A DNA stretch of 64,000 bases. It comes from a virus. Lineage: Duplodnaviria; Heunggongvirae; Uroviricota; Caudoviricetes. The DNA is taken from the IMG/VR virus record IMGVR_UViG_3300010370_000025. One strand, given 5' to 3'. The position numbers were made by a program, and so were the translations under genes. This document shows positions 23,630 to 64,000 of this stretch, in pieces. The notes beneath the pieces were generated by a model, which was not told where the DNA came from, did not search any database, and worked only from the letters and a program-made list of their open reading frames with translations. How positions within the stretch are numbered: the first letter of the stretch is position 1; every line of letters starts with the position of its first letter.

Positions 23630-23630
23630 T

Positions 23631-48551: not shown

Positions 48552-49339
48552 AGATAGCACATGAAGCACCAATAAGCATTTTTCCTCAAGTACAGCGCAT
48601 GACTGATTATGATTATGCGCTTGTTCACTTATTTGAATCTAATATGTTTTACTATCGCATGTTTAAAGATGCAGTTATTAACGGGCGTGAAGTTATTTTA
48701 GATAATTCTATTTTTGAATTGGGATATGCATTTGACGGTGATTCATATCATAATTGGATTTTAACTTTAAGCCCTACTTGGTATATTGTGCCTGATGTAT
48801 TAGAAGATACAAATGGTACTCTTAATAGTCTTAATAAGTGGTTTTCAAAGTTTGATATTCCAAAGCCTATTAAGTCTATTGGAGCTATTCAAGGTACTAC
48901 CTACGATGAAATTGTAGAGTGTTATCAGGGGGTTGAACCTTTTGTAGATAAGGTTGCTATATCATTTGATTTTTCTTATTATATTAAGTCAACAGAATAT
49001 TTAAAGCCTGATAATAAGTATTATGCTTGGATGCTTGGCCGTCAAAAGCTATTGAAAGATTTGCTTAATGATGGTATTATCAATACTAATAAACCCCATC
49101 ACCTTCTTGGGTGCGCATTACCTCAAGAGTTTTTAGCTTATAAAGATTATAAGTGGATTGACTCTGTAGATACTTCTAATCCTATTGTACATGGATTAAA
49201 TGGTATAGCGTATAAACCTAATGGTTTAGATGAAAAGATTTCTACTAAACTTATTGATTATATGACTGAGAGTGTTACTGATACTCAACTAGAATTTATT
49301 AAAGGTAATATTGAACAGTTTAGAAAGTTTTGTAAGTGA
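48548..49339 (+). CDS. tRNA-guanine-transglycosylase-fold protein (DpdA-like 7-deazaguanine DNA transglycosylase candidate)
   Basis: TGT-like motifs 'ILDNSIFELG' (cf. DSGGFQ), 'HLLGCALP' (cf. LMGVGTP) and 'IDSVDTSNP' (cf. GVDMFDCV). It is embedded among que genes. Confidence 0.5.
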   Translation: MKIAHEAPISIFPQVQRMTDYDYALVHLFESNMFYYRMFKDAVINGREVILDNSIFELGYAFDGDSYHNWILTLSPTWYIVPDVLEDTNGTLNSLNKWFSKFDIPKPIKSIGAIQGTTYDEIVECYQGVEPFVDKVAISFDFSYYIKSTEYLKPDNKYYAWMLGRQKLLKDLLNDGIINTNKPHHLLGCALPQEFLAYKDYKWIDSVDTSNPIVHGLNGIAYKPNGLDEKISTKLIDYMTESVTDTQLEFIKGNIEQFRKFCK

Positions 49340-49884
49340 AACCTTGGATTGCGCTCTTTAGTAATACTGGTAGCGAGCTCAAAAGGATCTGCGATCATTT
49401 TGATATATGGCCTACATCTGTAATTACTAATAATTTTAACTCGGATGATTGGCGTCATAATATTCCAGAAGATATTGTGACAATGATGTCACCTAGCGCT
49501 ATTCACGCCGGGTTTAAGCATATGTATAAAAGGCAGTTTGTTACTCTACATGGGTATATGAGAATATTGCCTCCAGAAGCATGTGAAATGCATGATGTAT
49601 ATAACGGGCATCCAGGCGCTATCAATCTTTATCCTGAACTTAAAGGTAAAGATCCTCAAGAGCGAGTGTGGAATGATCTAGGTAAATATGAGTTTATTGG
49701 TTCAGTTGTGCATAAAGTTACTGAAGAGCTTGATGGTGGTGAGATTGTAAGTAAAGTCTTTTGCGAAAACACTTGCACTTCTAAAGAAGAGCTCTATAAT
49801 ACAATTAGAGAAACTTCATTTAGATCATGGAAAAACTTTCTTTCAACTCATTTTGAGAGAGAGCTAGGAGTAAATAATGTCTGA
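49336..49884 (+). CDS. PurN/Fmt-family formyltransferase domain protein (DpdN-like candidate)
   Basis: 'NGHPGAINLYPELKG' and 'SVVHKVTEELDGGEIVSKVF' match the PurN catalytic-loop pattern (H..D). Confidence 0.7.
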   Translation: MKPWIALFSNTGSELKRICDHFDIWPTSVITNNFNSDDWRHNIPEDIVTMMSPSAIHAGFKHMYKRQFVTLHGYMRILPPEACEMHDVYNGHPGAINLYPELKGKDPQERVWNDLGKYEFIGSVVHKVTEELDGGEIVSKVFCENTCTSKEELYNTIRETSFRSWKNFLSTHFERELGVNNV

Positions 49885-50122
49885 CGCAATTAAACCTGAT
49901 CATTATAAAGCAGGTAATGCATTGTATAGCTGTATCGATGTTATTGAAGATCTTTGTAAAGGTACAAAGAACGATACGTTTACAGATTATAATAGATTTC
50001 AAGCTTTTAAGTATATCTGGAGAGCAGGTAATAAAGATCCTGTACTTCAAGATCTTAAGAAAGCAGTTAGATTTTTAGAATTTGCTATTGCATACGAGGA
50101 AAAGAAGAATGGTAAAAATTGA
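49877..50122 (+). CDS. DUF3310-like small protein (paralog 1)
   Basis: Shared motifs with 51059-51472: 'PDHY', 'FKYIWRAGNKDP' and 'DLKKA..FLE'. Confidence 0.45.
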   Translation: MSDAIKPDHYKAGNALYSCIDVIEDLCKGTKNDTFTDYNRFQAFKYIWRAGNKDPVLQDLKKAVRFLEFAIAYEEKKNGKN

Positions 50123-51059
50123 GGATATTGCATCAAAGCATTTAGGTAAAGCTGGCGACGGTTCGGTAGTTAAGCCTTATGTTACACCAGATAATATTGA
50201 CCCTAGTCTTTTAGTAGGCGTTCCTCGTTATCTTAATCGCATTCAGTATGCAATTGATGAAAACAACCTTCCTTTTGAAGGTTTTGATACTTGGAATTGC
50301 TATGAGTTTTCTGCATTAACTGATAATGGATTTCCTGTATGCGGGGTAATTCGTTGTGTATATTCTAGCAGCTCTAAGAATATTGTAGAGTCAAAGTCTC
50401 TCAAGCTTTATATGAACTCTTATAATATGGCAAGGCTTGGTAAAAGTGTTAAAGAGGTGACTGAAAACGCAGTTGCAACTATCCGTAAAGATCTTGTAGA
50501 GGTTCTTGGATTAGCTGATGAAAATGATTTGAATGTTTCATTTTGTGATGATCAAAGCCCTTCATATGAACCTATCAATGAGCCATATAAGTCAGCATTT
50601 GTTAAGCTTGAATATGTTAATGACATTGAAAATATGACGTTTGATCATTATAATGAAGATCCTAAGATTCTTCAAGTTATACCAACTAATAATTCATCGG
50701 TAGAATTTAAATGGAAGTCATCTGTACTTCGCTCTAATTGTAGAGTAACCAATCAACCCGACTGGGGTGATGTTTTTATTTCTATTAAAGGCGATAATAC
50801 AATTACTTCAGAATCTTTACTCCAATACTTAGTATCTATGCGTAAAGAAAATCACTTTCACGAAGAAATTTGTGAATGCATTTATAAGAGATTATATGAT
50901 CTACTTAATCCAGAAGAGTTGTTTGTAGCTTGTCTTTATACACGTAGAGGCGGTATAGATATTAATCCAGCTCGCGCTACTAATAAAGAGGTAGTTATGA
51001 AACATGCTTCTATGCTTTATAATTCATCAATTAATAATATTAAAACTTTGAGGCAATAA
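50109..51059 (+). CDS. queF: NADPH-dependent 7-cyano-7-deazaguanine reductase QueF (two-domain type)
   Basis: QueF signature 'ESKSLKLYMNSY'. ATG at 50109 (track 50082). Confidence 0.7.
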   Translation: MVKIEDIASKHLGKAGDGSVVKPYVTPDNIDPSLLVGVPRYLNRIQYAIDENNLPFEGFDTWNCYEFSALTDNGFPVCGVIRCVYSSSSKNIVESKSLKLYMNSYNMARLGKSVKEVTENAVATIRKDLVEVLGLADENDLNVSFCDDQSPSYEPINEPYKSAFVKLEYVNDIENMTFDHYNEDPKILQVIPTNNSSVEFKWKSSVLRSNCRVTNQPDWGDVFISIKGDNTITSESLLQYLVSMRKENHFHEEICECIYKRLYDLLNPEELFVACLYTRRGGIDINPARATNKEVVMKHASMLYNSSINNIKTLRQ

Positions 51060-51472
51060 TGACAAAAGCTAGTAAGAGTAATATGTTTGAAAAGAGTGCA
51101 GCAGAAGAGCCGTTTTTAGCTACTATGGGTTCAACAGAACCGTTCGGTGCAGTAGGATCTTCTATTAGTGTAGATAATGTTAGCTTTACAATGCAAGAAC
51201 CTGCTTATATATCTACTCAGTACGACGTCAATCAAGAAACAGTAGATCATCCAGATCATTATGGTGGTGCTGATAATCCTTATGAAGCAATTAAGGTTAT
51301 TCGCGCTTGGGACCTTGGATTTAGTCTAGGTAATACAGTAAAATATATTTCACGTGCAGGTAAGAAAGATCCTAATAAGCGTCTTGAAGACTTGCAAAAA
51401 GCACTTTGGTATTTAGAAGAAGAGATTCAGTATGAATTTGCAAAAAGCCTTGGACCACGTTCCGGATACTAA
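51059..51472 (+). CDS. DUF3310-like small protein (paralog 2, with an N-terminal extension)
   Basis: 'PDHYGG', 'VKYISRAGKKDP' and 'DLQKALWYLEEE'. Confidence 0.45.
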   Translation: MTKASKSNMFEKSAAEEPFLATMGSTEPFGAVGSSISVDNVSFTMQEPAYISTQYDVNQETVDHPDHYGGADNPYEAIKVIRAWDLGFSLGNTVKYISRAGKKDPNKRLEDLQKALWYLEEEIQYEFAKSLGPRSGY

Positions 51473-52205
51473 ACATAATGTTGTATCAGTTCTCTCCGGA
51501 GGGCTCGACTCTACTATTATGACTTATATTCTTGTACGTAAGTATGGTGCAAATAGAGTCTTTGCACTTTCATATAACTACGGACAGAAGCAAAAAGTAG
51601 AACTTGAAATGGCAGCTAAGACATGTGAGTATCTTGGCGTAGCACATAAGGTTCTTGATCTAAGCATCCTAGGTGATATTGTTAAGAACGTCTCTGCTAA
51701 CATTGGTGGTAGTGATGTTAATATGCCTACTATTAAGGATGTGCTTGGAGATCCTCAACCTAAGACATACGTACCCTTCCGTAATATGATTCTTAATTCG
51801 TTAGCATTCTCGTTTGCAGAAGCTAATAAAGCAAGTCATGTATTTACTGGATTACAAGTACATGATGAATATGGTTATTGGGATACTACTCAGAAGTTTG
51901 TAGATAGTATGAATGCAGTAGCAGATCAAAATCGTACTCATAAAGTTAAACTAGAAGCGCCTTTTAGTCTTCTTTCTAAGTATGATGAACTTATGATAGC
52001 TAAAGAACTTGGTAATGTTCGTTTAGAATATACTCTTACCTGCTATGATCCAGATGAACAAGGTCGTTCATGCGGTATTTGCCCATCATGCTCTGAACGT
52101 CTTCAAAATTTTATTAAAGCAAATATGAGAGACCCTATTCAATACCAACCAGGTAGAACTGTTGATTGGGATAGGTTTCTTATTAACGGTGGTGTAAGCT
52201 ATTAA
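51432..52205 (+). CDS. queC: 7-cyano-7-deazaguanine synthase QueC
   Basis: PP-loop 'SGGLDS' and a C-terminal zinc motif 'CGICPSCSERL'. Confidence 0.8.
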   Translation: MNLQKALDHVPDTKHNVVSVLSGGLDSTIMTYILVRKYGANRVFALSYNYGQKQKVELEMAAKTCEYLGVAHKVLDLSILGDIVKNVSANIGGSDVNMPTIKDVLGDPQPKTYVPFRNMILNSLAFSFAEANKASHVFTGLQVHDEYGYWDTTQKFVDSMNAVADQNRTHKVKLEAPFSLLSKYDELMIAKELGNVRLEYTLTCYDPDEQGRSCGICPSCSERLQNFIKANMRDPIQYQPGRTVDWDRFLINGGVSY

Positions 52206-52849
52206 TGTGCAGTATATTTGGCAGTTTTAGTACTGAAAAGTTAAAAGAGTTAGCTGAGCTTAATTTATATAGAGGTCAGCACTCTTATTCTTTTTCATAC
52301 TATGATATCCTTAAAAGACAAATCACCTTTATGCAGAAAGATTTAGGTGAATTGCCTATTAATGACATTAATATACCTGAAGGGCATTATGCAATAGCAC
52401 ATATGCAAGCTCCCACTACAGGTAATAAAAGAGCTAACACTATACACCCGGCTACTATAGGCGTGCATAGTCTTTGGCATAATGGTATTATTAAAGATCA
52501 TTGTGTAAAAAATATGTCACGTAATACCGTTTTTATTGAAAATGGTGATTTAGATTATCTTTCTTGGGATACTTATTTAATTCTCCATCAGTATGTTTAT
52601 CAAGGCAATATAAATAATATAGATGGTACATTTTCATGCGTATACTATAGTGAGCGTGATGGATTGAGATTGTTTCGTAATGAGATATCACCGCTTTTTA
52701 TTGATAAAGAGCACAACATATCCTCAACTAAATTTAACGATTCAGAATCGCTAATGCCTAATATTATCTGGCAATTTTTGCCAGGTGAAGGTATAATGTC
52801 AATTGATACCTTTAAAACAGTAGAAAACCCTTATTATTTTGGAATATAA
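52205..52849 (+). CDS. Class-II (Ntn) glutamine amidotransferase-like domain protein, free-standing downstream of queC
   Basis: Begins 'MCSIFG', i.e. a nucleophile Cys right after Met as in AsnB/GATase-II. TAATG overlap with queC. Confidence 0.5.
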   Translation: MCSIFGSFSTEKLKELAELNLYRGQHSYSFSYYDILKRQITFMQKDLGELPINDINIPEGHYAIAHMQAPTTGNKRANTIHPATIGVHSLWHNGIIKDHCVKNMSRNTVFIENGDLDYLSWDTYLILHQYVYQGNINNIDGTFSCVYYSERDGLRLFRNEISPLFIDKEHNISSTKFNDSESLMPNIIWQFLPGEGIMSIDTFKTVENPYYFGI

Positions 52850-52852
52850 TTC

Positions 52853-53362
52853 ATGATGATTCATATTGCATCTAAAGAGACTGGATCTTCTCTTACTAAT
52901 TTAGTTGAAGCAGATATTCAACCTAATGCTGTAGATCTTAGAGTGAGTAAAATTTTCTCTATTAATCAAAATACTTTTGTTATCGGTGAAGATGATGATG
53001 GCAAAGAGACAAAAATTCATCGAGGTTCTACTGAAGTATATCCAGATGAGTACGGCTATTATACTCTTGACCCTGGCTCATATGAAGTAATTATGGAAAA
53101 TATTATTTCAGTGGGAGCTGATGAAGCGGGGTGGGTTATTACTCGTTCTACTCTTAATCGTAATGGTGTATATATTACTAGCGGGTTATATGATTCAGGT
53201 TATAATGGTGTCATGGCTGGCGCACTTCATGTAACTAGAGGTACTGCCCGTATTAAGAAGGGTACTCGAGTAGGGCAATTCCTATTATTTAAGTCTCAAT
53301 CTCTTAAGAAATATGATGGAGATTACGGTATCGGTAAGGCGCATGATCAAAAATATAATTGA
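52853..53362 (+). CDS. dUTPase/dCTP-deaminase-fold protein
   Basis: 'SGLYDSGYNGVMAGALHV' resembles the dUTPase/dCD motif III region. Predicted beta-rich. Confidence 0.45.
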   Translation: MMIHIASKETGSSLTNLVEADIQPNAVDLRVSKIFSINQNTFVIGEDDDGKETKIHRGSTEVYPDEYGYYTLDPGSYEVIMENIISVGADEAGWVITRSTLNRNGVYITSGLYDSGYNGVMAGALHVTRGTARIKKGTRVGQFLLFKSQSLKKYDGDYGIGKAHDQKYN

Positions 53363-53545
53363 TTATCTTAAGTGGTCAAACCTATTAATAACATTTACTC
53401 TAAATCCATATAGATGGAAAATTCACTTTAATTATTTTCCTCCTAATGATTTAGGACCAAAGATGCATCATTTAATTATTAGAATATTAATGTTAAGAAT
53501 AGAACTCATCATTGATGATGGTTCGTGGTAATAAGGAAATAAAAA

Positions 53546-54403
53546 ATGGAAATTAAAATTGAACTTGAAGAGCTAAGAAAGAAAAAGCTCTTTATTGCTA
53601 CCCCGATGTATGGTGGTGCTTGTACAGGTATGTACACTCGCTCTATGTGTGATTTGACATCGATGCTAGTAAAGTATGGTATTGAAATGCGATCATACTT
53701 CCTATTTAACGAATCACTTATTACTCGTGCACGTAACTATTGCGTGGATGAATTCTTGCGTTCTGACTTTACACATCTTATGTTTATTGACTCAGATATT
53801 GGATTTAATCCTCAAGACGTAATTGCACTTCTTGCATTACAGGACGATGATTCACCGTATGATGTTATCGGTGGACCTTATCCTAAAAAGTGTATTACAT
53901 GGGAAAAGGTAAAGCAAGCTGTCGATAAGGGTGTTGCTGATAAAGATCCTAACGTGCTTGAAGATTTTGTAGGCGACTTCGTATTCAATCCAGTTATTGA
54001 GAATGGTGCTAAGTCTAAGGAAATTCGTCTTGATGAACCTGCAGAGGTTCTTGAGATTGGTACTGGATTTATGATGATTCGTAAGAAGACGTTTGATCAG
54101 TATGCGGCAGCTTATCCAGAAATTATGTATAAGCCTGATCATGTTCGTACTGCTGCGTTTGATGGGTCGCGTGAGATTGGAATGTATTTCCAAGCAGAGA
54201 TTGATCCTGCATCTAAGCGCTATCTATCAGAAGATTATCTCTTCTGTCAAAACGTACGTAAGATGGGCGGTAAGGTATGGATTTGTCCGTGGATGCATAT
54301 GGCGCATTCAGGCTTCTATACATTCAATGGTAAGCTTCCCGCTCTTGCTTCTATTGGTGCATCAGCTACTGCTGATCCAGCGCTATTAAAGAATAAGAAG
54401 TAA
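53546..54403 (+). CDS. GT-A fold glycosyltransferase-like protein ('FIDSDIGF' DxD)
   Basis: DxD plus an upstream 'ESLITRARN' motif. Confidence 0.45.
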   Translation: MEIKIELEELRKKKLFIATPMYGGACTGMYTRSMCDLTSMLVKYGIEMRSYFLFNESLITRARNYCVDEFLRSDFTHLMFIDSDIGFNPQDVIALLALQDDDSPYDVIGGPYPKKCITWEKVKQAVDKGVADKDPNVLEDFVGDFVFNPVIENGAKSKEIRLDEPAEVLEIGTGFMMIRKKTFDQYAAAYPEIMYKPDHVRTAAFDGSREIGMYFQAEIDPASKRYLSEDYLFCQNVRKMGGKVWICPWMHMAHSGFYTFNGKLPALASIGASATADPALLKNKK

Positions 54404-54419
54404 TTAAAGGATATTTGTT

Positions 54420-55097
54420 ATGAAACTTAGTGAACAGACTATTAATATTTTAAAGAACTTTTCAGTTATTAATAATAACTTGCTTGTTAACCCAGGTAAT
54501 ATTCTTACTACTGTTGCCCCGCAATCACGTTCCGTGTACGCTAAAGCAAACGTAGAAGAAACTTTTCCAAAGCAATTTGCTATCTATGAATTGAATAAGT
54601 TTCTTGGTGTAGTATCTCTCTTCAAGGAACCAGAGCTTGAGTTTGGTGATATGTCAGTTAAGATTGTCTCAGGTAGACAATCAGTAAGCTATACATATGC
54701 AGACCCATCTATGGTTATTGCACCAGATCCTAATAAGGATATTAATTTTCCGACAGCAGATATTGAGTTCTCCATTTCTCAAGAAGAACTTCAGCGCGTC
54801 GTAAGGGCTGCAGGTGTTCTTCAGTTGCCGGAAATTGCAGTGACTGGTGATGGTGCGAACATTACCGTCACTGCTACTAATTCAAAGAATCCAACTACTG
54901 ATGTATTCAGTATTGAGGTAGGTGAGACTAATCATACTTTTAATATGTTAATTAAAGCAGAAAATATTATTAAGTTAATTTCTGCTAACTATGAAGTAAA
55001 GATTACATCGCGCGGACTAGCACAATTTAAGTCTAATAATGTAATCTATTATATTGCAACAGAAGCTAATAGCACATTTAATAAGGATGAAAATTAA
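54420..55097 (+). CDS. gp45: Sliding clamp gp45
   Basis: Colinear with T4 gp45 ('MKLS..T..LKNF..IN'). Confidence 0.85.
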   Translation: MKLSEQTINILKNFSVINNNLLVNPGNILTTVAPQSRSVYAKANVEETFPKQFAIYELNKFLGVVSLFKEPELEFGDMSVKIVSGRQSVSYTYADPSMVIAPDPNKDINFPTADIEFSISQEELQRVVRAAGVLQLPEIAVTGDGANITVTATNSKNPTTDVFSIEVGETNHTFNMLIKAENIIKLISANYEVKITSRGLAQFKSNNVIYYIATEANSTFNKDEN

Positions 55098-55690
55098 TGA
55101 ACGTATATATTCTACTTGACAGATCAGGTTCTATGTCAAGTCTTTGGAATGAAGCAATTGGCGCTATTAATGCATACGTAAAAAAGCTTGACAAAAAGAC
55201 CAAGATCTTTTTATCAACTTTTGATAATGAAAGCTATGATGTTCTTCGTAACTCTAGTGTAAAAGAGTGGAAGGATATTGGTGAGAAAGAATCGCATCCT
55301 AGAGGTATGACTCCTCTTTATGATTCTTGTGCACGTATTATGAATCGTGCAATTGAAGATAATAGCGATAAAACTATTCTTGTCGTAATGACAGATGGTT
55401 TTGAGAATTGCTCAAGAGAGCATACTCGTGAACAGATTAAAGCTAAGATTAAAGACTTTGAAAAGAAAAACTGGGAAGTTGTTTTTCTCGGAGCAAACTT
55501 TGATAAGGTAGATTCAGTTGCATCTGATCTCGGGCTAGCGTATAATAAGTTTACAAATATTACTACAAATAACCTTAGATCGTATATGATGGGTAGTCTA
55601 GCTGACGCTACTGTAGCATATACTACTGCAGGTACTGCAGTAAATATTACTGACAAAGATAAGATGTCTGCTACTAAAGCATCAGTCTAA
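55097..55690 (+). CDS. von Willebrand factor A domain protein (MIDAS 'DRSGSM') inserted between gp45 and gp44
   Basis: vWA motifs 'LLDRSGSM', 'T....' and 'VVMTDGFEN'. Confidence 0.7.
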   Translation: MNVYILLDRSGSMSSLWNEAIGAINAYVKKLDKKTKIFLSTFDNESYDVLRNSSVKEWKDIGEKESHPRGMTPLYDSCARIMNRAIEDNSDKTILVVMTDGFENCSREHTREQIKAKIKDFEKKNWEVVFLGANFDKVDSVASDLGLAYNKFTNITTNNLRSYMMGSLADATVAYTTAGTAVNITDKDKMSATKASV

Positions 55691-55723
55691 TCTTTTATTT
55701 TATATTATGAAAATGGTGAAAAA

Positions 55724-56665
55724 ATGGTACGTGATGAATTCTTGTGGGTCGAAAAGTATCGTCCCAAGACTATAGATGATTGTGTGTTGCCGGACAGCTT
55801 AAAGCAAACTTTTAAGCAGTTTATTGCTGGCGGTGAAATTCCTAATCTACTTCTTACAGGCGGGCCCGGCGTTGGTAAAACGACCGTGGCTCGCGCTATG
55901 TTGGAACAGATTGGGTGTGATTATATTGTTATTAACGGGAGTATGAATGGCAACATCGACACGCTTAGAAATGAAATTCAGCAGTTTGCCTCAAGTATCT
56001 CTTTTAGTGGGGGACGAAAATACGTCATCCTTGACGAAGCAGATTACCTTAATGCAAATTCAACCCAACCCGCACTTAGAAATTTCATGGAAGAATATTC
56101 CAAAAATTGCGGATTCATCCTTACATGCAACTTTAAAAATCGAATTATTGAACCGCTACATTCTAGGTGCTCTGTCGTAGAGTTTAAGATTGCTAAAACA
56201 GATTTACCTAAACTTGCTATGCAGTTTTTCAAGCGCGTAGTAGGTATTCTTGATAAAGAAAATATAAGTTATGATAAATCAGTAGTTGCTGAACTAATTA
56301 ATAAACATGTACCTGATTGGCGTCGAGTTCTTAATGAGCTTCAACGTTATTCTGCTACAGGTAGCATTGATTCTGGTATCTTTATTAATCTTAGTGAAGA
56401 GAATTTTAAAAGTCTTATATCAATGCTTAAAGCTAAAAACTTTGCAGAGATGCGTAAATGGGTAGGTGAGAATAGTGATTCAGATTCTACATCTGTATTT
56501 CGCAAGTTTTATGATCAAGCCTATCAGTATATTAAACCTAGTTCTATTCCTGAACTAGTTGTACTTATTAGTAAGTATCAATATCAAGCTGCATTTGTAG
56601 CTGATCATGAAATTAACTTAACTGCATTCTTAACTGAGTGTATGATTACTGTTGAGTTTATCTAA
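55724..56665 (+). CDS. gp44: Clamp loader large subunit gp44 (AAA+)
   Basis: Walker A 'GGPGVGKTT', 'ILDEAD' and SRC-like 'SRC'. Confidence 0.85.
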   Translation: MVRDEFLWVEKYRPKTIDDCVLPDSLKQTFKQFIAGGEIPNLLLTGGPGVGKTTVARAMLEQIGCDYIVINGSMNGNIDTLRNEIQQFASSISFSGGRKYVILDEADYLNANSTQPALRNFMEEYSKNCGFILTCNFKNRIIEPLHSRCSVVEFKIAKTDLPKLAMQFFKRVVGILDKENISYDKSVVAELINKHVPDWRRVLNELQRYSATGSIDSGIFINLSEENFKSLISMLKAKNFAEMRKWVGENSDSDSTSVFRKFYDQAYQYIKPSSIPELVVLISKYQYQAAFVADHEINLTAFLTECMITVEFI

Positions 56666-57078
56666 TGAATCCGTTTGATTTTGTTAACGCTATTAATGGC
56701 AAAAAGCAAGACATCATTAGAGCATCTGACAACCCTGATCTTGCTGAGAAGCAATATATACCTTTTATTATTAATAAAGCATTCTCATATCATATCGATA
56801 CAGTGCTTTACTCAAATGAGATGAATAAAGCAGCTCATATTGATTCTAAACTCCAAAACGACTATTACCTAAATAGTATACGCACTGGAAAGCGTTTCTC
56901 TAAGTGGCATAAGCGCCAGGAAAACTTAGATATAGACGTTATTCAGGAATATTTTAAAGTAAACTATTTAAGAGCTACTGAGATAGCAAAATTGCTATCA
57001 AGGGAACAGCTCGACCTTATAAGAATAAGAATAACAAAAGGTGGTAATAATGAGCTTCGATCTAAGTCAGCTAGTTGA
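56665..57078 (+). CDS. gp62: Clamp loader small subunit gp62
   Basis: Position and a pattern similar to T4 gp62. Confidence 0.55.
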   Translation: MNPFDFVNAINGKKQDIIRASDNPDLAEKQYIPFIINKAFSYHIDTVLYSNEMNKAAHIDSKLQNDYYLNSIRTGKRFSKWHKRQENLDIDVIQEYFKVNYLRATEIAKLLSREQLDLIRIRITKGGNNELRSKSAS

Positions 57079-57445
57079 AGTGAGATTAAAGAATGCTGAA
57101 GATTTTCTCAAAGTTCGCGAAACTTTATCTCGAATCGGCTTAGCGTCAAAAAAAGACAACACTCTTTATCAGTCATGCCATATTCTACATAAACAAGGCA
57201 AATATTATATTGTGCATTTTAAAGAGTTGTTTATGCTTGACGGTAAAGAAGCAACCTTCTCAGAAGGTGATATTGCTAGACGTAACAGAATTGTTACGCT
57301 TCTAGACGAATGGGAATTAATAGAAGTTGTTGATAACAGTAAAATATTAAATCCTATTGCACCCCTTAATCAGATTAAAATTATTCCTTTCAAAGAAAAG
57401 AATAGCTGGAATCTTATTACTAAATATACTATAGGTGGAAGATAA
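57041..57445 (+). CDS. regA: Translational repressor RegA
   Basis: Strong colinear similarity to T4 RegA ('KNAEDFLKVRETLSRIGLASKKD.TLYQSCHILHKQG.YYIVHFKE'). Confidence 0.85.
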   Translation: MVIMSFDLSQLVEVRLKNAEDFLKVRETLSRIGLASKKDNTLYQSCHILHKQGKYYIVHFKELFMLDGKEATFSEGDIARRNRIVTLLDEWELIEVVDNSKILNPIAPLNQIKIIPFKEKNSWNLITKYTIGGR

Positions 57446-57463
57446 CTATATAAAGTTTTTGTT

Positions 57464-58534
57464 ATGTATAATTATGATGATGTTAGAGTAGTTCATTTAG
57501 AAATTACTCAAAAGTGTCAAGCTTCCTGTCCGATGTGTGACAGAAATCAAAATGGGGGCTTAATCAACCCCCATCTTTCTTTAGCTGAACTCTCCTTAGA
57601 AAATTGTAAGCAAATATTTGAGCCTGCTTTTATTAAGCAGCTTAACTACATGTATATGTGTGGTAATTTAGGTGATCCTATTATTGCTAATGATACTCTA
57701 GAAGTATTTGATTACTTTCGCACACATAACCCTAACATGAAACTAAGCATGAATACCAATGCAGGTGCTAGAAATCAGCAATGGTGGCGAGATCTTGCTA
57801 AAGTATTAGGCCCGAAGGGGATGGTAAGATTCTCTATAGATGGATTAGAAGATACTAATCATATCTACAGAAGAGGTGTTCAATGGGATAATGTAATGAG
57901 CTCTCTTACCAGTTTTATTGATGCTGGAGGTAACGCTATATGGGATTATTTAATATTTGATCATAATGCACATCAAGTAGAAGAAGCAAAAAAATTATCA
58001 GTTAATCTAGGTGTAAAAACTTTTGTAGAAAAGAAAACATCTAGATTCTATAGTACAGCAAAAACATCTCTTAAAGATACTCATACTGTAAAAGATCGTA
58101 AAGGTAACGATCAATATGATCTAAAACCAGTAGATACACCTCTTAATAATAAAATTAATAATACTATAGATAAGCATGGTAGTCTATCTAACTATTATGA
58201 TACAACAGAAATAGTTTGTAAAGTAAAAGAACAAAAAAGTATTTTTATTACTGCTGAAGGTCTAGCAATGCCTTGTTGCTGGACTGCTTCCCGTATGTAT
58301 AAGTGGTGGCATAAAGATCCTAAAGTAGAACAGGTGTGGCAATTTATTAAAGATACAGATAGAATAAACGTTCTTAAACACGGTATTAAAGATGTGCTTA
58401 ATAATGGTGTATTTCAAGATATAGAAGTAAGCTGGGGGCTTCGATCAGTAGCAGAAGGTAAACTGAAAGTATGCTCTGAGAAATGTGGTAAAGAGTTTGA
58501 TCCGTTTAAGGAACAATTTGTTAATGCAAAATAA
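57464..58534 (+). CDS. Radical SAM enzyme with a C-terminal SPASM/twitch-like Cys cluster (rSAM-A)
   Basis: 'ITQKCQASCPMC' (CxxxCxxC), 'CGNLGDP', and a C-terminal 'C-x12-G-x4-CC ... CSEKCGKEF'. Confidence 0.65.
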   Translation: MYNYDDVRVVHLEITQKCQASCPMCDRNQNGGLINPHLSLAELSLENCKQIFEPAFIKQLNYMYMCGNLGDPIIANDTLEVFDYFRTHNPNMKLSMNTNAGARNQQWWRDLAKVLGPKGMVRFSIDGLEDTNHIYRRGVQWDNVMSSLTSFIDAGGNAIWDYLIFDHNAHQVEEAKKLSVNLGVKTFVEKKTSRFYSTAKTSLKDTHTVKDRKGNDQYDLKPVDTPLNNKINNTIDKHGSLSNYYDTTEIVCKVKEQKSIFITAEGLAMPCCWTASRMYKWWHKDPKVEQVWQFIKDTDRINVLKHGIKDVLNNGVFQDIEVSWGLRSVAEGKLKVCSEKCGKEFDPFKEQFVNAK

Positions 58535-59927
58535 AATATCATCTACATTCTGCGCTTTACCTTGGGTACATTTAAGCACAAGACCAGACGGTTCAATGCG
58601 TGTGTGTTGCACAGCTAATGCATCAGGAGTACAAGATCCTGATAGTAGTAAGCGTGTTAATGGTGGTAATGCAGGTATAGTTAAGAATCAAAATAATATG
58701 CCAGCAAATCTCAACCACACATCACTTAATGATGCGTGGAATAATGAGTACATGTGCAACGTGCGTAAAACAATGCTTAAAGGTGAAAAGCCAACTTCTT
58801 GTCTCAAATGTTATAAAGAAGAAGAAGCAGGTGTTATCAGTAAACGTCAATGGGAAACTGATTACTGGGGTAAGATATTTGATCTTAATGAGATAGTATC
58901 GGAGACTAAAGAAGATGGTTCTATTCCAGCAAAAATTAGATATTTAGATCTTAGACTAGGTTCTAAATGTCAGCTTGCATGTGTTATGTGTTCACCGCAT
59001 GATAGTTCAGGTTGGGTAAAAGAATGGAATGAAATTTATCCTAAGATTGAAAATGAAAATTTAAAACGTAATAGTAATTGGCATATGAAGGGCCAAGTAG
59101 GTGGTGCTAGCTATAACTGGCATCTTAATAATCCTACATTCTGGGAAGAGCTTTATGAGCAGATTCCTCATATGTATCAACTATACTTTGCTGGTGGTGA
59201 AAGCACTATCATTAAAGAACATTATCTTCTTCTGGAAGAGTGTATCAAAAGAGGATATGCAAGCCAAATTGAACTTAGATATAACTCTAACGGGCTTGAA
59301 TTGCCTGAAAAGCTTTTCGAGCTTTGGTCGCATTTTAGGTTAGTTAAATTTCATTTTTCTATAGATGCATTAGGCAAGCAGAACGAATATATTCGTTATC
59401 CTACTGATTGGAAGACTATAGAAAATAACTTACACATTCTTGATAATACCCCTGATAATGTAGAAGTAACAATAGCTTGTACCTTGATGGCATTAAACAT
59501 ATACTATTTTCCAGATTTTATAAAGTGGAAACTTACTCAAGGCTTTAAAAAGATCAATAAATATCCATACGGTGCTGGAACTATTAATACCCATTTTGCG
59601 TATTACCCTCCTCAGCTTAACGTTAAAGTCCTGCCTAAAGAGTTTAAACAAAAAGTCGTTGACAAATACGAAAACGATTTCTTTCCTTGGTTAGAAGAAA
59701 ACTGGAAACTTGCAACAGGCATACCTGACACTGTAAGTAAAGAAAAGTGGTTTAGTGAGAATTATAGTATTAAAAGATATAAAAGTATTCTAAACTTTAT
59801 GAATAAAGAAGACTGGAGTCAAAGATTACCAGAGACTGCAGAATGGATTAAACGTATAGATGATACCCGTGGTTTGAACTTCTATGAAATATTTCCTGAT
59901 TTTGATTGGTTAAAAAATTATGAGTAA
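58524..59927 (+). CDS. Radical SAM enzyme with an N-terminal SPASM-like Cys-rich domain (rSAM-B)
   Basis: N-terminal 'FCALPW..DGSMRVCC' and 'SCLKCYKEEEAG', followed by a core 'LGSKCQLACVMC' and 'FAGGEST'. ATG at 58524. Confidence 0.55.
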   Translation: MQNKISSTFCALPWVHLSTRPDGSMRVCCTANASGVQDPDSSKRVNGGNAGIVKNQNNMPANLNHTSLNDAWNNEYMCNVRKTMLKGEKPTSCLKCYKEEEAGVISKRQWETDYWGKIFDLNEIVSETKEDGSIPAKIRYLDLRLGSKCQLACVMCSPHDSSGWVKEWNEIYPKIENENLKRNSNWHMKGQVGGASYNWHLNNPTFWEELYEQIPHMYQLYFAGGESTIIKEHYLLLEECIKRGYASQIELRYNSNGLELPEKLFELWSHFRLVKFHFSIDALGKQNEYIRYPTDWKTIENNLHILDNTPDNVEVTIACTLMALNIYYFPDFIKWKLTQGFKKINKYPYGAGTINTHFAYYPPQLNVKVLPKEFKQKVVDKYENDFFPWLEENWKLATGIPDTVSKEKWFSENYSIKRYKSILNFMNKEDWSQRLPETAEWIKRIDDTRGLNFYEIFPDFDWLKNYE

Positions 59928-61263
59928 GACGTTTTGTCCTATGCCTTGGAATTCAGTTAACCTGCGCAATAATGGTGATATGCGCATTTGCTGTAACGCC
60001 AATTCATATACTAAAAATAGAGGTATTCTTAGAAAAGAGGACGGTACTGCATTTAATATCGGTAGAGATGATATTAATGAAGCTAGAAACTCTTCTACAC
60101 TAAAAGAAGTAAGAGCTACTATGCTTAAGGGTGAATGGCATTCTGAGTGTGAGCGCTGCCGACAAGAAGAAGTAAATGGTATTAGAAGTAGAAGAGAGTA
60201 TGAATCAGAACTCTGGAATACTGTAGAGGAAAATATTAAAGATAAAACGTTAGAAGACGGTACTATTAATGCAGAAGAGATTCCTATAGATTATTTTGAT
60301 ATTAGATACGGTAATTTTTGTAATTTAAAATGTCGTATGTGTGCTCCTACTGAATCACATACATGGTTTAGTGATTATGTAGAATTATACAAAACTAACA
60401 AGTATAAAGATACTCATGATACAATAGTACTTACTAAAAATAAAAAAGGTAGATGGGTAACAGATCAATACGATTGGTTTAAAAACTCTAATCATTACTG
60501 GCATCAATTTGAAAAATATACAAAAAATGCTAAAAAGTTTTATATAGTAGGAGGTGAACCTCTTATTATTGAAGAACATATTGATTCTTTAGAGCGTTTA
60601 ATTTATAATGGTAATTCTAAAGAGGTAGTTATAGAGTATAATACTAATTTAACAAACGTTACACCACGTATTCTTGAATTATGGAAAAACTTTAAGCAGA
60701 TTAGAATTGGTGCATCAATTGACGGGTTTGGTGATGTGTTTGAATATCAGAGAACCCCAGCAAATTGGGATAGTGTCTATGAAAATTTGCTTAAGTTGGA
60801 TACTAATACGGATATTAATTTAGTAGGCTGGTTTGCATTTACTGTAACACCTATTAATATATTTCATTTACCAGAATTTATGAAATGGAAATTAACAGAT
60901 AGTAAGCTTAATAGATTTAATACTATAAGAGGTGTACGTAAAGTAATATCTCACCATATGTGTCACGCACCTAGACATTATAATGTTAAGTGTCTTCCAG
61001 ACGAGATAAAACAACAAGTAGATGTACATTTTGCAGAGTATAAAGAATGGGCTAAGTGTCAACCAGAAGATGTATATAAAGATTTCTGTAAACTATTGAA
61101 TGGTGTTTCTCGTTTTATGAACTCTGAAAGATACTACGATCCTCATTTTACTGATTTTATTGATATAACCGCTAAACTGGATAAAATTAGAAACCAAGAT
61201 GTGAGAAAAATTGTCCCTCAATTTACAAAATACTTTGATGCATATTACGAACGAAAATCCTGA
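59920..61263 (+). CDS. Radical SAM enzyme, paralog of rSAM-B (rSAM-C)
   Basis: 'FCPMPW..NGDMRICC', 'ECERCRQEEVNG', 'YGNFCNLKCRMC' and 'VGGEPL'. Confidence 0.55.
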   Translation: MSKTFCPMPWNSVNLRNNGDMRICCNANSYTKNRGILRKEDGTAFNIGRDDINEARNSSTLKEVRATMLKGEWHSECERCRQEEVNGIRSRREYESELWNTVEENIKDKTLEDGTINAEEIPIDYFDIRYGNFCNLKCRMCAPTESHTWFSDYVELYKTNKYKDTHDTIVLTKNKKGRWVTDQYDWFKNSNHYWHQFEKYTKNAKKFYIVGGEPLIIEEHIDSLERLIYNGNSKEVVIEYNTNLTNVTPRILELWKNFKQIRIGASIDGFGDVFEYQRTPANWDSVYENLLKLDTNTDINLVGWFAFTVTPINIFHLPEFMKWKLTDSKLNRFNTIRGVRKVISHHMCHAPRHYNVKCLPDEIKQQVDVHFAEYKEWAKCQPEDVYKDFCKLLNGVSRFMNSERYYDPHFTDFIDITAKLDKIRNQDVRKIVPQFTKYFDAYYERKS

Positions 61264-62131
61264 TTGTTGTATAGTTACTTTATTTTTACATAACGTTTGT
61301 AATTATAAATGTTCTTACTGCAACGATTATCACAGAGATGGGTCATATAGGTGGCCAGATGACTGGGAAGCATATACCAAACTTATTAGTAAAGTGAAAG
61401 AAAATAATAAAAACGTATATGTTGAAGTATTAGGAGGTGAACCTACTCTGTGGCCCAGATTTCAAGAGTTTGTAGATTATATTAGCAGTGATGATGTATT
61501 TGTAGAGTATGCTACTAATGCATCGCGCACTCTTAATTATTGGAGCAAATTTAAAACACAAAATGCTTTTGTATTTCTATCTTGGCATCATGAGTTTGCT
61601 GATGATGATCATTTTGTAAAAGTTGCAGAGATAATGCAACACAAAGCTTCAGTATCAGTTCCTTTAATGGTAGTGCCTGATAATTTTGAACGTGCTAAAG
61701 CGCTGTATGAGAGACTCAAACCGTTAAACATAGAAGTAACTCCTAAATTTACTCGTACATCTATTAACGGACATTCATACTTTAATTATACAGACGAACA
61801 AAAAGAATGGATTCAAAATAATAGTTTTAATAAAATGAAACCATTTGGTATTAACTGGAAAATACCTCAAACATTACATTTTAATGGTGAACCTATTAGG
61901 TTTATGTCTGTACTAGATAGACAGATGCATAAATTTAAAGGTTATACATGTACTGCAGGCATAAAAAGACTTATGGTAGATCCTAACGGTGATATTAAAA
62001 GATGTACTAAAAAGGTAGGTGGTATTATAGGCAACATATTTAAAGAATATAAACTGCCAGATACACCAATAGTGTGTACTTATGAAGCTTGCCCTTGTAA
62101 ACTAGATGCGGTTGTTGAAAAATGGAGTTAA
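61238..62131 (+). CDS. Compact radical SAM-SPASM enzyme (rSAM-D)
   Basis: 'HNVCNYKCSYC', 'LGGEPTL', and a C-terminal 'C-x12-G-x4-C' plus 'CTYEACPC'. ATG at 61238. Confidence 0.6.
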   Translation: MHITNENPDCCIVTLFLHNVCNYKCSYCNDYHRDGSYRWPDDWEAYTKLISKVKENNKNVYVEVLGGEPTLWPRFQEFVDYISSDDVFVEYATNASRTLNYWSKFKTQNAFVFLSWHHEFADDDHFVKVAEIMQHKASVSVPLMVVPDNFERAKALYERLKPLNIEVTPKFTRTSINGHSYFNYTDEQKEWIQNNSFNKMKPFGINWKIPQTLHFNGEPIRFMSVLDRQMHKFKGYTCTAGIKRLMVDPNGDIKRCTKKVGGIIGNIFKEYKLPDTPIVCTYEACPCKLDAVVEKWS

Positions 62132-63372
62132 ATCTTCTTGACACTTACAATTTAAAAGATCCTGTTTGTATGTACAAATTAGGATGGAGTACTGTAAGAC
62201 TGTACAACAGTGTTAGTCAGAGTTGTCATAGAGTTGTATCAAACGATATTATAACACCAGAGACTTTTGATAGTTTTCATAATACTCCTTCAAAAATTAA
62301 AGCTAGGGAGTCTATGTTCAATGGTCAGTGGCCAGAAGAAACTGAGCATGTAGGATGCAATTATTGTAAAAAAATAGAAGATGCAGGAGGCCTTAGCGAT
62401 AGACATATTATTAATAGATCTTATAATTCTCAATATGTCACAGAAGAAACAAAAAGCAATCCTCGTTCTAGCATAACCACCCCCACAATGTTAGAGGTTT
62501 ATTTTACAAATTTATGTAATATGAGTTGCATATATTGTAATAGTCTATTTAGTAGTAAATGGGAAGCAGAAGATTTAAAACATAATTTTGATAAAAATAA
62601 ATTTAGACTAGAAAAATTAAGAGAAGGAAGAAAGACTTATTCAGCAATGAAAGTTGCTTTCTGGAAATGGTTTGAAAAAAATGTTTCTAAACTAAAATCG
62701 TATAATATATTAGGAGGAGAACCTTTTTATCAGCAAGAGTTAGTAGAAAATATAGAATTCTTTAACAATAACGAATGTCCAGATTTAGAAATAAATATAT
62801 TTTCTAATTTAAAAGTGGAACCAGAAAAATTTAAAGATATTTTAAATAGTTTTTCTAATCTTATTAAATTAAAAAAGATAAAATCTCTTACACTTTTTTG
62901 TAGTTTTGATTGTTGGGGGCCTCAAATTGAATACATTAGATATGGGTTAAATTTAAATAAGTGGGAAGAAAACTTTAATATTTTAATAAATGATTATCCA
63001 GAAATTAAAATAGTCTTGCACAGCACTCTTACGTCTCTTACGTTTGATACGTTTCCTCAACTATGTGAAAAAGTAAAAAAATGGCAGACTATCCGACAAT
63101 TACGTCATAGTATTTCTATTGCAGGCGGCAATCATTGGCATCCTGGTATTTTCTCGAAAGATTTTTTTACAGAAAAAATTAATGAAGCTATATCGTTTAG
63201 TAATGACAAAGATTTTATTGTTAAATTAGACGGGTTTAATAAATCATTTAATGCTCATAATGAAAATAAACATGAAATTAGAATACTTAAACAAGAGTTA
63301 GATAGATTGGATAAAATTAGAAATACTAACTGGAAATTATTATGGCCTTGGTTAGACAAATATGAAGTATGA
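62122..63372 (+). CDS. Radical SAM enzyme with an N-terminal Cys-rich extension (rSAM-E); very AT-rich
   Basis: 'FTNLCNMSCIYC' and 'LGGEPF'. Its N-terminal 'GCNYCKKIEDAGGLSDR' aligns with the rSAM-B and rSAM-C N-domains. Confidence 0.5.
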   Translation: MELNLLDTYNLKDPVCMYKLGWSTVRLYNSVSQSCHRVVSNDIITPETFDSFHNTPSKIKARESMFNGQWPEETEHVGCNYCKKIEDAGGLSDRHIINRSYNSQYVTEETKSNPRSSITTPTMLEVYFTNLCNMSCIYCNSLFSSKWEAEDLKHNFDKNKFRLEKLREGRKTYSAMKVAFWKWFEKNVSKLKSYNILGGEPFYQQELVENIEFFNNNECPDLEINIFSNLKVEPEKFKDILNSFSNLIKLKKIKSLTLFCSFDCWGPQIEYIRYGLNLNKWEENFNILINDYPEIKIVLHSTLTSLTFDTFPQLCEKVKKWQTIRQLRHSISIAGGNHWHPGIFSKDFFTEKINEAISFSNDKDFIVKLDGFNKSFNAHNENKHEIRILKQELDRLDKIRNTNWKLLWPWLDKYEV

Positions 63373-64000
63373 TGACCTTACATTTGATATATTAGGTACA
63401 AAACGTCAAAGACCTATGTATCTTTCTTGTTTTACCAGAGCAAGATGTAATATGGATATGAAAAATTATCCTAAAGATCCTCATGAATATACAAAATACT
63501 TTATATCATATGTAGATAAATGGATAAAAGAACATAAACAAGTTAAGTATAATAATTTAGATTCTTTTAATCGAAAAGATGTTATACTAGGAACTACACA
63601 TCAATTAGACGAATTACATCTATTATATGGTAAAAGAATTGCAGTTTTTAAAGGTGAATACAAATATCACCGCAGGCTTACCAACTCAAACGTAAAGCAA
63701 ATTACATCTTATAAAGAACTTTTAGAAGGGGATGTATTAGTTGTATCATACCCTTCTTGTATTACAACTAATATTATAAAAGATTTTGATGAAACTTTAG
63801 ATTATTGTTTAAAAAATAATATACAAGTACATATAGACGGCGCATGGTTCGGTCAATGTAGAAATTTTAATTTTGATGTAAGTCACCCTGCAATATTATC
63901 TGTAAGTGTATCACTTTCTAAAGCATATGGAATGGGAAGTCAGCGTATCGGTATTAGATATTCAAGAAATATTACTACAGGTCCTATATCTATTATGAAC
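63362..64000 (+). CDS. Class I/II PLP-dependent aminotransferase-like protein (partial, runs off the window)
   Basis: 'VHIDGAWFG' (cf. the vDEAY region) and a PLP-lysine motif 'SLSKAYGMGSQRIGI'. Stop/start overlap with rSAM-E. Confidence 0.45.
   Translation, partial: MKYDDLTFDILGTKRQRPMYLSCFTRARCNMDMKNYPKDPHEYTKYFISYVDKWIKEHKQVKYNNLDSFNRKDVILGTTHQLDELHLLYGKRIAVFKGEYKYHRRLTNSNVKQITSYKELLEGDVLVVSYPSCITTNIIKDFDETLDYCLKNNIQVHIDGAWFGQCRNFNFDVSHPAILSVSVSLSKAYGMGSQRIGIRYSRNITTGPISIMN

Follow-up and report, generated by a model that had tools for sequence, protein, structure and literature searches.

A large radical SAM island downstream of regA in an uncultured T4-like phage

Gene content of the island

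The DNA analyzed here is a stretch of 64,000 nucleotides (the window) from an uncultured virus, IMG/VR record IMGVR_UViG_3300010370_000025. The phage is T4-like and encodes terminase, tail sheath, portal, major capsid protein (MCP), UvsW, gp46/47, gp45, gp44, gp62 and regA. Right after regA, a sequence-only reading of the window had noted six plus-strand genes, five for radical S-adenosylmethionine (rSAM) enzymes and one for a pyridoxal phosphate (PLP) enzyme. All six open reading frames (ORFs) are present and overlap tightly, by 8-26 nt. They are the 5' third of a 20-gene operon that, together with a convergent three-gene unit, makes up a real, unusually large and widely distributed rSAM island. 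The genes of the operon are lettered A to T, and A, B and O are referred to as the triad. The part of the island inside the window, with its left boundary, is as follows.

57050..57445, + strand: regA translational repressor, left island boundary (Pfam Translat_reg; 66-71% DNA identity with cyanophage regA)
57464..58534, + strand: A, 356-aa rSAM enzyme, triad member (Pfam Radical_SAM 29.6 bits, cut-off 29.5)
58524..59927 (ATG start), + strand: B, 467-aa N-terminal-twitch rSAM enzyme, triad member (NF033640 N_Twi_rSAM 424.7 bits)
59920..61263, + strand: C, 447-aa N-terminal-twitch rSAM enzyme (N_Twi_rSAM 355.4 bits, Pfam Radical_SAM 37.9 bits, SPASM 25.9 bits)
61238..62131 (ATG start), + strand: D, rSAM enzyme of ca. 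297 aa (Pfam Radical_SAM 41.0; CNYKCSYC motif, C-terminal Cys-rich twitch-like tail)
62122..63372, + strand: E, 416-aa divergent N-terminal-twitch rSAM enzyme (N_Twi_rSAM 207.3 bits)
63362..64000, cut at the window end, + strand: F, short fold-type-I PLP-enzyme-like protein (complete with 302 aa in contig L001, 11241-12149)

With ATG starts, the junctions from A/B to E/F overlap by 11, 8, 26, 10 and 11 nt, and regA and A are separated by 18 nt. The reading frame of B is open already from a GTG at 58485 and that of D from a TTG at 61211.

The CxxxCxxC motif is found in all five rSAM genes of the window; in A it reads CQASCPMC, at residue 18 of an N-terminal rSAM core. The GGE(P/S) motif that had been ascribed to the same five genes occurs as GGES in B and as GGEP in C, D and E, while A has the variant GNLGDP. 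Membership in N_Twi_rSAM, a subfamily with a Cys module ahead of the rSAM core, was judged by the curated cut-off of 170 bits on the whole-protein score. By this score B, C, E and the downstream gene J are members, and A (47 bits) and D (32 bits) are not. Against Pfam Radical_SAM (PF04055), A, C and D score above the cut-off and B and E below it. An AlphaFold2 model of B (mean predicted confidence, pLDDT, 82.6) has the rSAM barrel. The rSAM identity proposed for the five genes stands. Chance occurrence of CxxxCxxC was rejected because the N_Twi_rSAM scores of B, C and E far exceed 170 bits and A, C and D pass the Pfam cut-off. The PDB matches of the B model were SkfB, viperin, anSME, DesII and MoaA, all with a template-modeling (TM) score of at most 0.39. 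Full-length structural relatives were only uncharacterized phage proteins, which share the overall fold of B with TM scores of 0.52-0.79. In BFVD these ranged from an uncultured Caudovirales rSAM protein (best, E = 8e-23) to the 'MoaA/NifB/PqqE family protein' Q6WHP4 of Vibrio phage KVP40 (E = 3e-10), which is a single uncharacterized gene as opposed to the multi-rSAM operon described here. PHROGs labels the window rSAM genes merely as 'radical SAM domain-containing protein'; A matches phrog_21308 (8e-23). The top NCBIfam match of D was STM4011, with 64.5 bits under a cut-off of 200.

Auxiliary Fe-S domains of the SPASM/twitch type are predicted for the window rSAM enzymes, which is supported by SPASM (PF13186, cut-off 21.5) scores of 24.8 for B (residues 10-97) and 25.9 for C. 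The score of A, 18.1 (residues 252-341), lies just below. An expected Pfam outcome of PF04055 plus SPASM was obtained in part, the former in A, C and D and the latter in B and C. Conserved cysteines of the N_Twi proteins are C10, C28/C29, C93 and C96, and A has a C-terminal Cys module of the SPASM/twitch type, Cx18CC...Cx3C. A on the one hand and B, C, E and J on the other appear to share this module (Cx17-18CC ... Cx2-3C), placed after the rSAM core in A and before it in the others, which looks like a domain permutation.

The five rSAM genes had been described as paralogs of each other. This holds for B, C and E, with 22-30% mutual identity (B versus C 30%, E = 4e-71; E versus B or C 22-23%). 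D is 24-32% identical to the downstream genes O, M and I and belongs to their subgroup, and A is separate from all others. Within the 5' part of A, the minus strand of window positions 57549-57577 (L001 5428-5456) holds a strong, GC-rich hairpin of 12 bp with a T-run behind it, which resembles a terminator.

Gene F carries SLSKAYGMGSQRIG. In an alignment of ten family members from viral contigs and Bdellovibrionota loci, D159, S184-x-S186-K187 and R195 are invariant in 10/10. The family profile matched valine-pyruvate aminotransferase AvtA (PDB 3g7q, E = 1e-5) over the PLP core only. F itself has no above-threshold Pfam or NCBIfam match, and weak matches below the cut-offs were to Aminotran_1_2 (PF00155) in 4/10 members and to Pyridoxal_deC in 3/10. 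With 302 aa as compared to ca. 400 in typical class I/II aminotransferases, F misses some 100 N-terminal residues. Judged from these features F is a short fold-type-I PLP enzyme, either an aminotransferase or a decarboxylase. The PLP fold with its invariant Lys, Asp and Arg thus agrees with the proposed PLP aminotransferase-like gene; the reaction type is left between two equally weak family matches.

Continuation of the cluster past position 64,000, as had been supposed, was established with two contigs. An exact search for protein E retrieved contig L001, which agrees with window positions 52122-64000 at 100% identity. A further look-up, via O (P0144), gave contig L246, whose overlap with L001 is likewise 100% identical. 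O is also carried by a contig of 195,579 bp. ENA and Logan assemblies (ERZ27275033, ERZ27275020, SRR5216638, SRR5216639) were the only ones in which this exact phage was seen. An exact 35-mer search of IMG/VR for the downstream sequence gave no match, and a homolog search with a 106-aa fragment of R returned three short proteins only. The island spans ca. 23 kb between regA and a DUF932 gene, with the 20 co-directional genes A-T covering ca. 20 kb. The genes that follow F are listed below.

G, + strand: SAM methyltransferase
H, + strand: protein with an HxD...H motif, 2-oxoglutarate-oxygenase-like by eye only
I, + strand: rSAM enzyme
J, + strand: N_Twi rSAM enzyme (246.5 bits)
K and L, + strand: PP-loop proteins with a QueC-type Zn motif
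M, + strand: rSAM enzyme
N, + strand: no assignment
O, + strand: rSAM enzyme, triad member
P, + strand: Asp/Asn-hydroxylase cupin (Asp_Arg_Hydrox family)
Q, + strand: GNAT
R and S, + strand: class-B rSAM enzymes
T, + strand: class-III aminotransferase
L246 9628-12449, minus strand: convergent unit that closes the island, with a SET-domain protein, a PP-loop protein lacking the QueC Zn motif, and the class-B rSAM enzyme U

Beyond the convergent unit there is a 102-aa ORF and then the DUF932 gene. The A-T junctions overlap by 1-26 nt throughout, save for gaps of 1 and 27 nt. The 12 rSAM genes of the island fall into four subfamilies: N-terminal-twitch (B, C, E, J), C-terminal-twitch with CNYKCSYC (D, I, M, O), class-B with a B12 domain (R, S, U), and A alone. 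For R, S and U the top family was PhpK, with 68-92 bits far from the cut-off of 600, and the B12-binding domain match was weak (E = 0.0046 in R). A class-B architecture is plausible for these three from their sequences; PhpK membership does not follow. The top NCBIfam match of T, the daptide aminotransferase of RiPPs (ribosomally synthesized peptides with post-translational modifications), was far under its cut-off, and a PDB search with the H family brought no match of note. The alignment of K to the QueC of this phage (25% identity, E = 3e-9) covers both proteins from end to end, including the PP-loop SGGxDS and the CxxCxxC Zn motif. Since it scores 20.7 bits against TIGR00364 (QueC), where the cut-off is 150.3, K is a QueC paralog and not QueC. 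The pair of SET and PP-loop genes adjoins the R-S-T block again in 11-13 other viral loci. A recent foreign insertion, considered on base composition, was rejected: the GC fraction of the island is 0.23-0.37 and that of its flanks 0.30-0.39.

Insertion site and conservation of the A-B-O triad

The closest isolated phages by MCP and gp44 identity are Stenotrophomonas phage DLP_6 (72% and 65%) and Methylophilales phage Melnitz (64% and 60%). By MCP only they are the Pelagibacter phages Mosig and HTVC008M (63-64%). When the region was searched against isolated phage genomes by megablast and blastn, regA was the sole match; tblastn against isolated phages gave three weak matches for B and none for O, and HTVC008M lacks both. 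The closest relatives of the replication module are JGI metagenome contigs with 78-82% identical proteins. In the nearest two of these (L252 and L253; gp44 78%, regA 82%, DUF932 80% identity) the site is empty: regA is followed by three small ORFs over 2.6 kb and then DUF932, with no rSAM gene. Three others (L262, L266, L267) carry one or two rSAM genes past DUF932 (A-like, 49-51% identity; in L262 also C-like), followed by gp43 and a K-like PP-loop gene. In many relatives an ORF of ca. 834 aa after regA is an RB69-type DNA polymerase. The position of gp43 is taken from these relatives, as a scan of JGI with DUF932 did not reach gp43 of this genome. The proposed insertion between regA and gp43 agrees with the empty site in the nearest relatives and with gp43 being reached a few kb on in others. 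The observations support the island as the occupant of a plastic regA-gp43 slot in the replication module, where the cargo of relatives varies from zero to 23 kb.

The triad is conserved far beyond this phage. Among the best 80 of at least 576 confirmed IMG/VR matches, O is 75-81% identical. Protein clusters number 4840 for O at E ≤ 1e-20 and 3991 for B at E ≤ 1e-5. The identity of A to its orthologs is 48-85% for viral contigs and 42-47% for Bdellovibrionota, where they lie beside B and O. Gene content around O differs sharply among contigs; the only families that often recur are of the B, C, A and P types. In the same-strand blocks around O, 396 of 916 ORFs contain CxxxCxxC. Fe-S assembly genes (IscU, NifU, SufE) were also seen inside or beside rSAM islands of related viral contigs, e.g. 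at L010 15795-16211.

A scan of GTDB with one genome per species, using a profile from a five-sequence alignment, gave 70 loci, 45 of them from Bdellovibrionota, Oligoflexia or Bacteriovoracaceae as counted by record titles. A few of the GTDB loci are probably mis-binned phage contigs, as judged for L096 and L140 from gene content. Eight Bdellovibrionota loci have A (42-47%), B (54-59%) and O (61-65%) together, and these are the sole genes common to all eight. In Bdellovibrionota the triad is a chromosomal unit; in one of these loci, on a contig of 558 kb, a bona fide dnaG is 2.7 kb away. The median identity of O is 79% between phages, 71% between Bdellovibrionota and 64% between the two groups. 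By these identities the phage and Bdellovibrionota triads are two old clades under strong constraint.

Some Bdellovibrionota loci also hold tandem arrays of five to seven N_Twi rSAM paralogs (L141 342-11877, also L107, L115 and L117). In L141 seven genes of this family, six of them uninterrupted, are directly followed by an O-like gene. One Bdellovibrionota array has an O-like gene and an asparagine-synthase-like gene downstream. The arrayed paralogs have nearly identical N-termini (e.g. MEKLNTEDILKGKKEISPTFCVYPWMEF...), which points to very recent tandem duplication. In two Bdellovibrionales loci (L097 7947-9764 and L098 9760-11529) a NodU/CmcH-type carbamoyltransferase and a membrane-anchored protein are found between B and A-O.

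This variability bears on the explanation that there is no single pathway at all. The regA-gp43 gap would then be a dumping ground for independent rSAM auxiliary genes, acquired by duplication or transfer and each with its own host target. The wide range of cargo sizes, the strong gene turnover among contigs, the tandem duplicates in Bdellovibrionota and the single rSAM genes of the same fold in isolated phages such as KVP40 fit this view. We nevertheless hold it very improbable, as the 20 genes form one translationally packed operon, A, B and O recur jointly across phages and bacteria, and the R-S-T and SET-PP-loop sub-blocks recur as units.

Elsewhere in the window, a 197-aa protein with a weak VWA match is encoded between sliding clamp gp45 and clamp loader gp44 (55097-55690). 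Three ORFs of 1288, 409 and 726 aa in the structural region (6917-10783, 22400-23629 and 23616-25796) had no PHROG match at E ≤ 1e-5.

Substrate and role of the island enzymes

A literature search found no study assigning a function to such rSAM islands, and clues to the chemistry were sought among related enzymes and gene neighbors. The N_Twi profile matched SkfB (top), BlsE and GDGT-MAS in the PDB, where searches with the sequences of A and O found no matches. For O the top structural match was BlsE, which we give little weight because the model has a pLDDT of 58.6. A Pfam census of 138 non-rSAM families of the islands returned Asp_Arg_Hydrox (10 families), QueC-like (7), TauD (5), FA_desaturase (4) and nitroreductase (4). 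It also gave methyl-, sulfo- and acetyltransferases, FA_hydroxylase, halogenase, P450, an AMP-binding enzyme, aminotransferases, SufE and NifU. By family assignment these are classes of small-molecule tailoring enzymes. Phage islands matched 44 Pfam families, and the 25 commonest of these include neither a glycosyltransferase nor an enzyme for nucleoside diphosphate (NDP) sugars.

Hallmarks of RiPP biosynthesis were likewise absent. Island proteins gave no Pfam matches to a RiPP recognition element (RRE, PqqD-like), a leader peptidase or an exporter. In A, D, I, M and O there is no room for an RRE because the rSAM motif begins at residues 18-43. The lack of a precursor-peptide ORF that had been noted for the window extends to the continued cluster, and there is no space for such a gene since the A-T genes overlap or sit 1-27 nt apart. 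A conserved small ORF beside the triad was not found in the eight Bdellovibrionota loci either. A canonical RiPP cluster, lacking precursor, RRE, peptidase and exporter, was therefore rejected.

The explanation that we favor, tentatively and short of calling it probable, is a combinatorial radical tailoring pathway for a small non-peptide substrate, possibly nucleobase- or nucleotide-like, with the triad providing a scaffold and the other genes a variable decoration. A, B and O would perform successive radical steps on a ubiquitous low-molecular-weight cellular compound instead of a gene-encoded peptide. A nucleobase- or nucleotide-like compound is suggested by the QueC paralogs and by the position in the nucleotide/replication module. 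It is possibly supported, by analogy, by the alignment of K with QueC, the 7-deazaguanine genes upstream of the island (see below) and the distant relatives BlsE, viperin, MoaA and DesII, which have nucleotides or nucleosides as substrates. Accessory enzymes specific to a lineage would modify this scaffold further, through methylation, amidation, transamination, hydroxylation and acetyl or sulfo transfer, and each phage lineage would therefore make a different end product. The operon is probably co-transcribed with the replication genes since, apart from the two short spacings mentioned, it has no internal gaps and it starts 18 nt after gp45-gp44-gp62-regA. Multi-step radical chemistry on a single substrate, as put forward in the sequence-only reading, is consistent with the evidence. 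Gene content, insertion site, pattern of conservation and the lack of RiPP and glycan hallmarks are observed. From them we infer a single pathway, a substrate class and a biological role, which may lie in host takeover, competition or nucleic-acid chemistry.

Several points weigh against this explanation. None of the island enzymes scored above the curated cut-off of a functionally defined family, and because of this the substrate class is drawn from absences and weak analogies. The best sequence and structure neighbor of the N_Twi proteins, SkfB, is a peptide maturase, and SPASM/twitch enzymes as a class lean towards peptide substrates. The Asp/Asn-hydroxylase cupin, the SET protein and the GNAT are typical protein modifiers too. 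Lipids are suggested by the desaturase and hydroxylase families for fatty acids that occur in related islands. Neighbors of the Bdellovibrionota triad include the carbamoyltransferase and a weak Pfam match to Glyco_tranf_2_2 (E = 0.0018), and GT2-, ArnT- and NeuA/NeuB-like neighbors, mostly read from N-terminal sequences, hint at envelope glycans. An exporter, an immunity gene or an enzyme supplying the scaffold was not found in the island. The same-strand block used in the census may hold unrelated auxiliary genes. Promoter and terminator scans of the island gave counts near those of shuffled sequence, so co-transcription is read from gene spacing alone.

The peptide-directed relatives raise the alternative of post-translational modification, in which the island enzymes would put multiple marks on a virion or host protein encoded elsewhere, by analogy with methyl-coenzyme M reductase and proteusin-type peptides. 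The toolkit would consist of the rSAM/SPASM/twitch enzymes, the Asp/Asn-hydroxylase cupin, the SET methyltransferase, the GNAT and the class-B C-methylases. SkfB is the top PDB match of both the N_Twi profile and the B model, Asp_Arg_Hydrox is the commonest accessory family and includes P, a SET protein is present, and T comes nearest to the daptide aminotransferase. Islands of relatives adjoin large minus-strand ORFs (ca. 960 and 286 aa) that are fibre-like by eye alone, and rSAM cassettes have been described in a host-recognition cluster of pelagimyophages (PMC7029224). We still consider this explanation unlikely, because the search for a precursor gene, an RRE, a leader peptidase or a transporter was negative, the triad of Bdellovibrionota has no conserved partner protein, and the operon follows early/middle replication genes and not late structural genes.

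Upstream of the island, at a distance of 5-12 kb, the window contains a complete 7-deazaguanine set, FolE-QueD-QueE-QueC-QueF, with a formyltransferase-like gene.

45686-46522: QueE-like rSAM
46510-47052: QueD/PTPS
47009-47812: FolE
49336-49884: formyltransferase-like gene
50082-51059: QueF
51432-52205: QueC

This set suggests a preQ1-type, possibly formylated, modification of the phage DNA. The island enzymes might themselves hypermodify a base in phage DNA or tRNA, e.g. a 7-deazaguanine derivative, comparable to the thymidine-hypermodification clusters with their rSAM, PLP and acetyltransferase enzymes. The location in the replication/nucleotide module downstream of the Que genes, the QueC paralogs K and L and the K-like gene beside gp43 in relatives agree with such a role. 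Enzymes of the rSAM, PLP and acetyltransferase kinds are also known to act on DNA, with combinatorial gene sets in viromes (PMC8989533). However, QueC and QueF are kept in relatives without the rSAM island, and the triad of Bdellovibrionota is chromosomal and has no adjoining DNA-modification genes. DpdA was not identified among the window ORFs scanned. With Pfam, and without dedicated profiles, no DpdA/tRNA-guanine transglycosylase (TGT), 5-hydroxymethyldeoxyuridine (5-hmdU) kinase or aGPT-Pplase was detected among the island and upstream genes scanned. Base hypermodification by the island is thus distinctly unlikely in our view.

The lipid- and glycan-related families invite a further explanation, remodeling of envelope lipids or glycans of the infected cell or the predator surface, in which lipid-type rSAM chemistry together with hydroxylases and desaturases would alter receptors or the membrane, e.g. 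for superinfection exclusion. It draws on FA_desaturase (four families) and FA_hydroxylase in related islands, and on weak matches to two tetraether synthases, Tes and GDGT-MAS, and to class-B rSAM enzymes that act on lipids. LpxO and OlsC, which hydroxylate lipids, are members of the Asp_Arg_Hydrox family. The NodU-type carbamoyltransferase, the weak GT2-like match and the ArnT- and NeuA/NeuB-like genes next to the Bdellovibrionota triad also fit, and modification of the surface was proposed for the pelagimyophage islands (PMC7029224). Yet this phage's own island has no desaturase, the matches to lipid enzymes are no stronger than the generic rSAM ones, and glycosyltransferases and NDP-sugar enzymes are missing from the frequent island families listed above, which makes envelope remodeling quite improbable.

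Relation to known systems and implications

To describe the system as undescribed, as the sequence-only reading did, was too strong. Marine T4-like phages with multiple rSAM genes have been reported, with no function or core defined (PMC5332604, PMC7029224), and N_Twi_rSAM is already a named NCBIfam subfamily. B, C, E and J belong to this subfamily, which has no assigned function, and A, D, I, M, O, R, S and U fall outside. The 183 kb T4-like marine genome TARA_ERS488813_N000010 carries 12 rSAM genes and Fe-S assembly genes (Nishimura et al. 2017, PMC5332604). It resembles the present phage in being uncultured and T4-like with 12 rSAM genes, and IscU, NifU and SufE occur also in islands related to ours. 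The comparison is by description only; there the genes are listed as 'Fe-S-related auxiliary genes', without cluster anatomy, core triad or function. The hypervariable regions of pelagimyophages, which by MCP are T4-like relatives, contain an Asp/Asn beta-hydroxylase and rSAM cassettes that differ from one close relative to the next (Zaragoza-Solas et al. 2020, PMC7029224). Those cassettes belong to the 'host recognition cluster' of the tail fibres, flanked by VrlC and gp14, whereas the present island is in the replication module between regA and DUF932. More generally, rSAM genes are abundant in viromes (PMC7150976).

The nearest characterized phage analogs are the thymidine-hypermodification clusters of M6 and ViI (Lee et al., PMC5889632, PMC8989533), which like the island are phage-encoded combinatorial sets of rSAM, PLP and acetyltransferase enzymes varying between relatives. 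They differ in having one SPL-like rSAM gene, as compared to 12 rSAM genes of other subfamilies in the island, and in needing 5-hmdU, 5-HMUDK and aGPT-Pplase, for none of which Pfam gave a match among the island and upstream genes scanned. RiPP rSAM/SPASM clusters (SkfB, SuiB, PqqE, polytheonamide Poy) share rSAM enzymes with auxiliary clusters, class-B methylases and Fe/2-oxoglutarate hydroxylases; unlike in them, we could find neither a precursor peptide nor an RRE, a protease or an exporter in the island. As far as the literature was searched, the A-B-O triad, the Bdellovibrionota link and the empty-site evidence are new.

The joint occurrence of the triad in T4-like phages and predatory Bdellovibrionota allows a wider, rather unlikely but conceivable, interpretation. 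A, B and O could form the heart of a biosynthetic or modification system not known before and common to these two killers of Gram-negative bacteria. Its product, a new metabolite or a new modification of a macromolecule, would serve in takeover of the victim, and in an arms race fast-evolving accessory rSAM arrays would make this product more diverse.

Twelve rSAM genes in one phage operon are an extreme concentration of radical chemistry. Proteins of the O and B types each form thousands of clusters in aquatic metagenomes, none of known function, and the three-gene core offers a tractable biochemical entry point. The empty site and the Bdellovibrionota link make testable a long-standing annotation, the 'Fe-S/radical SAM auxiliary genes' that are abundant in marine viromes. 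New enzymology would probably emerge if the product is a nucleobase or nucleoside derivative, and equally if it is a modified protein or a lipid; a new level of interaction between virus and host, or predator and prey, may come to light as well.

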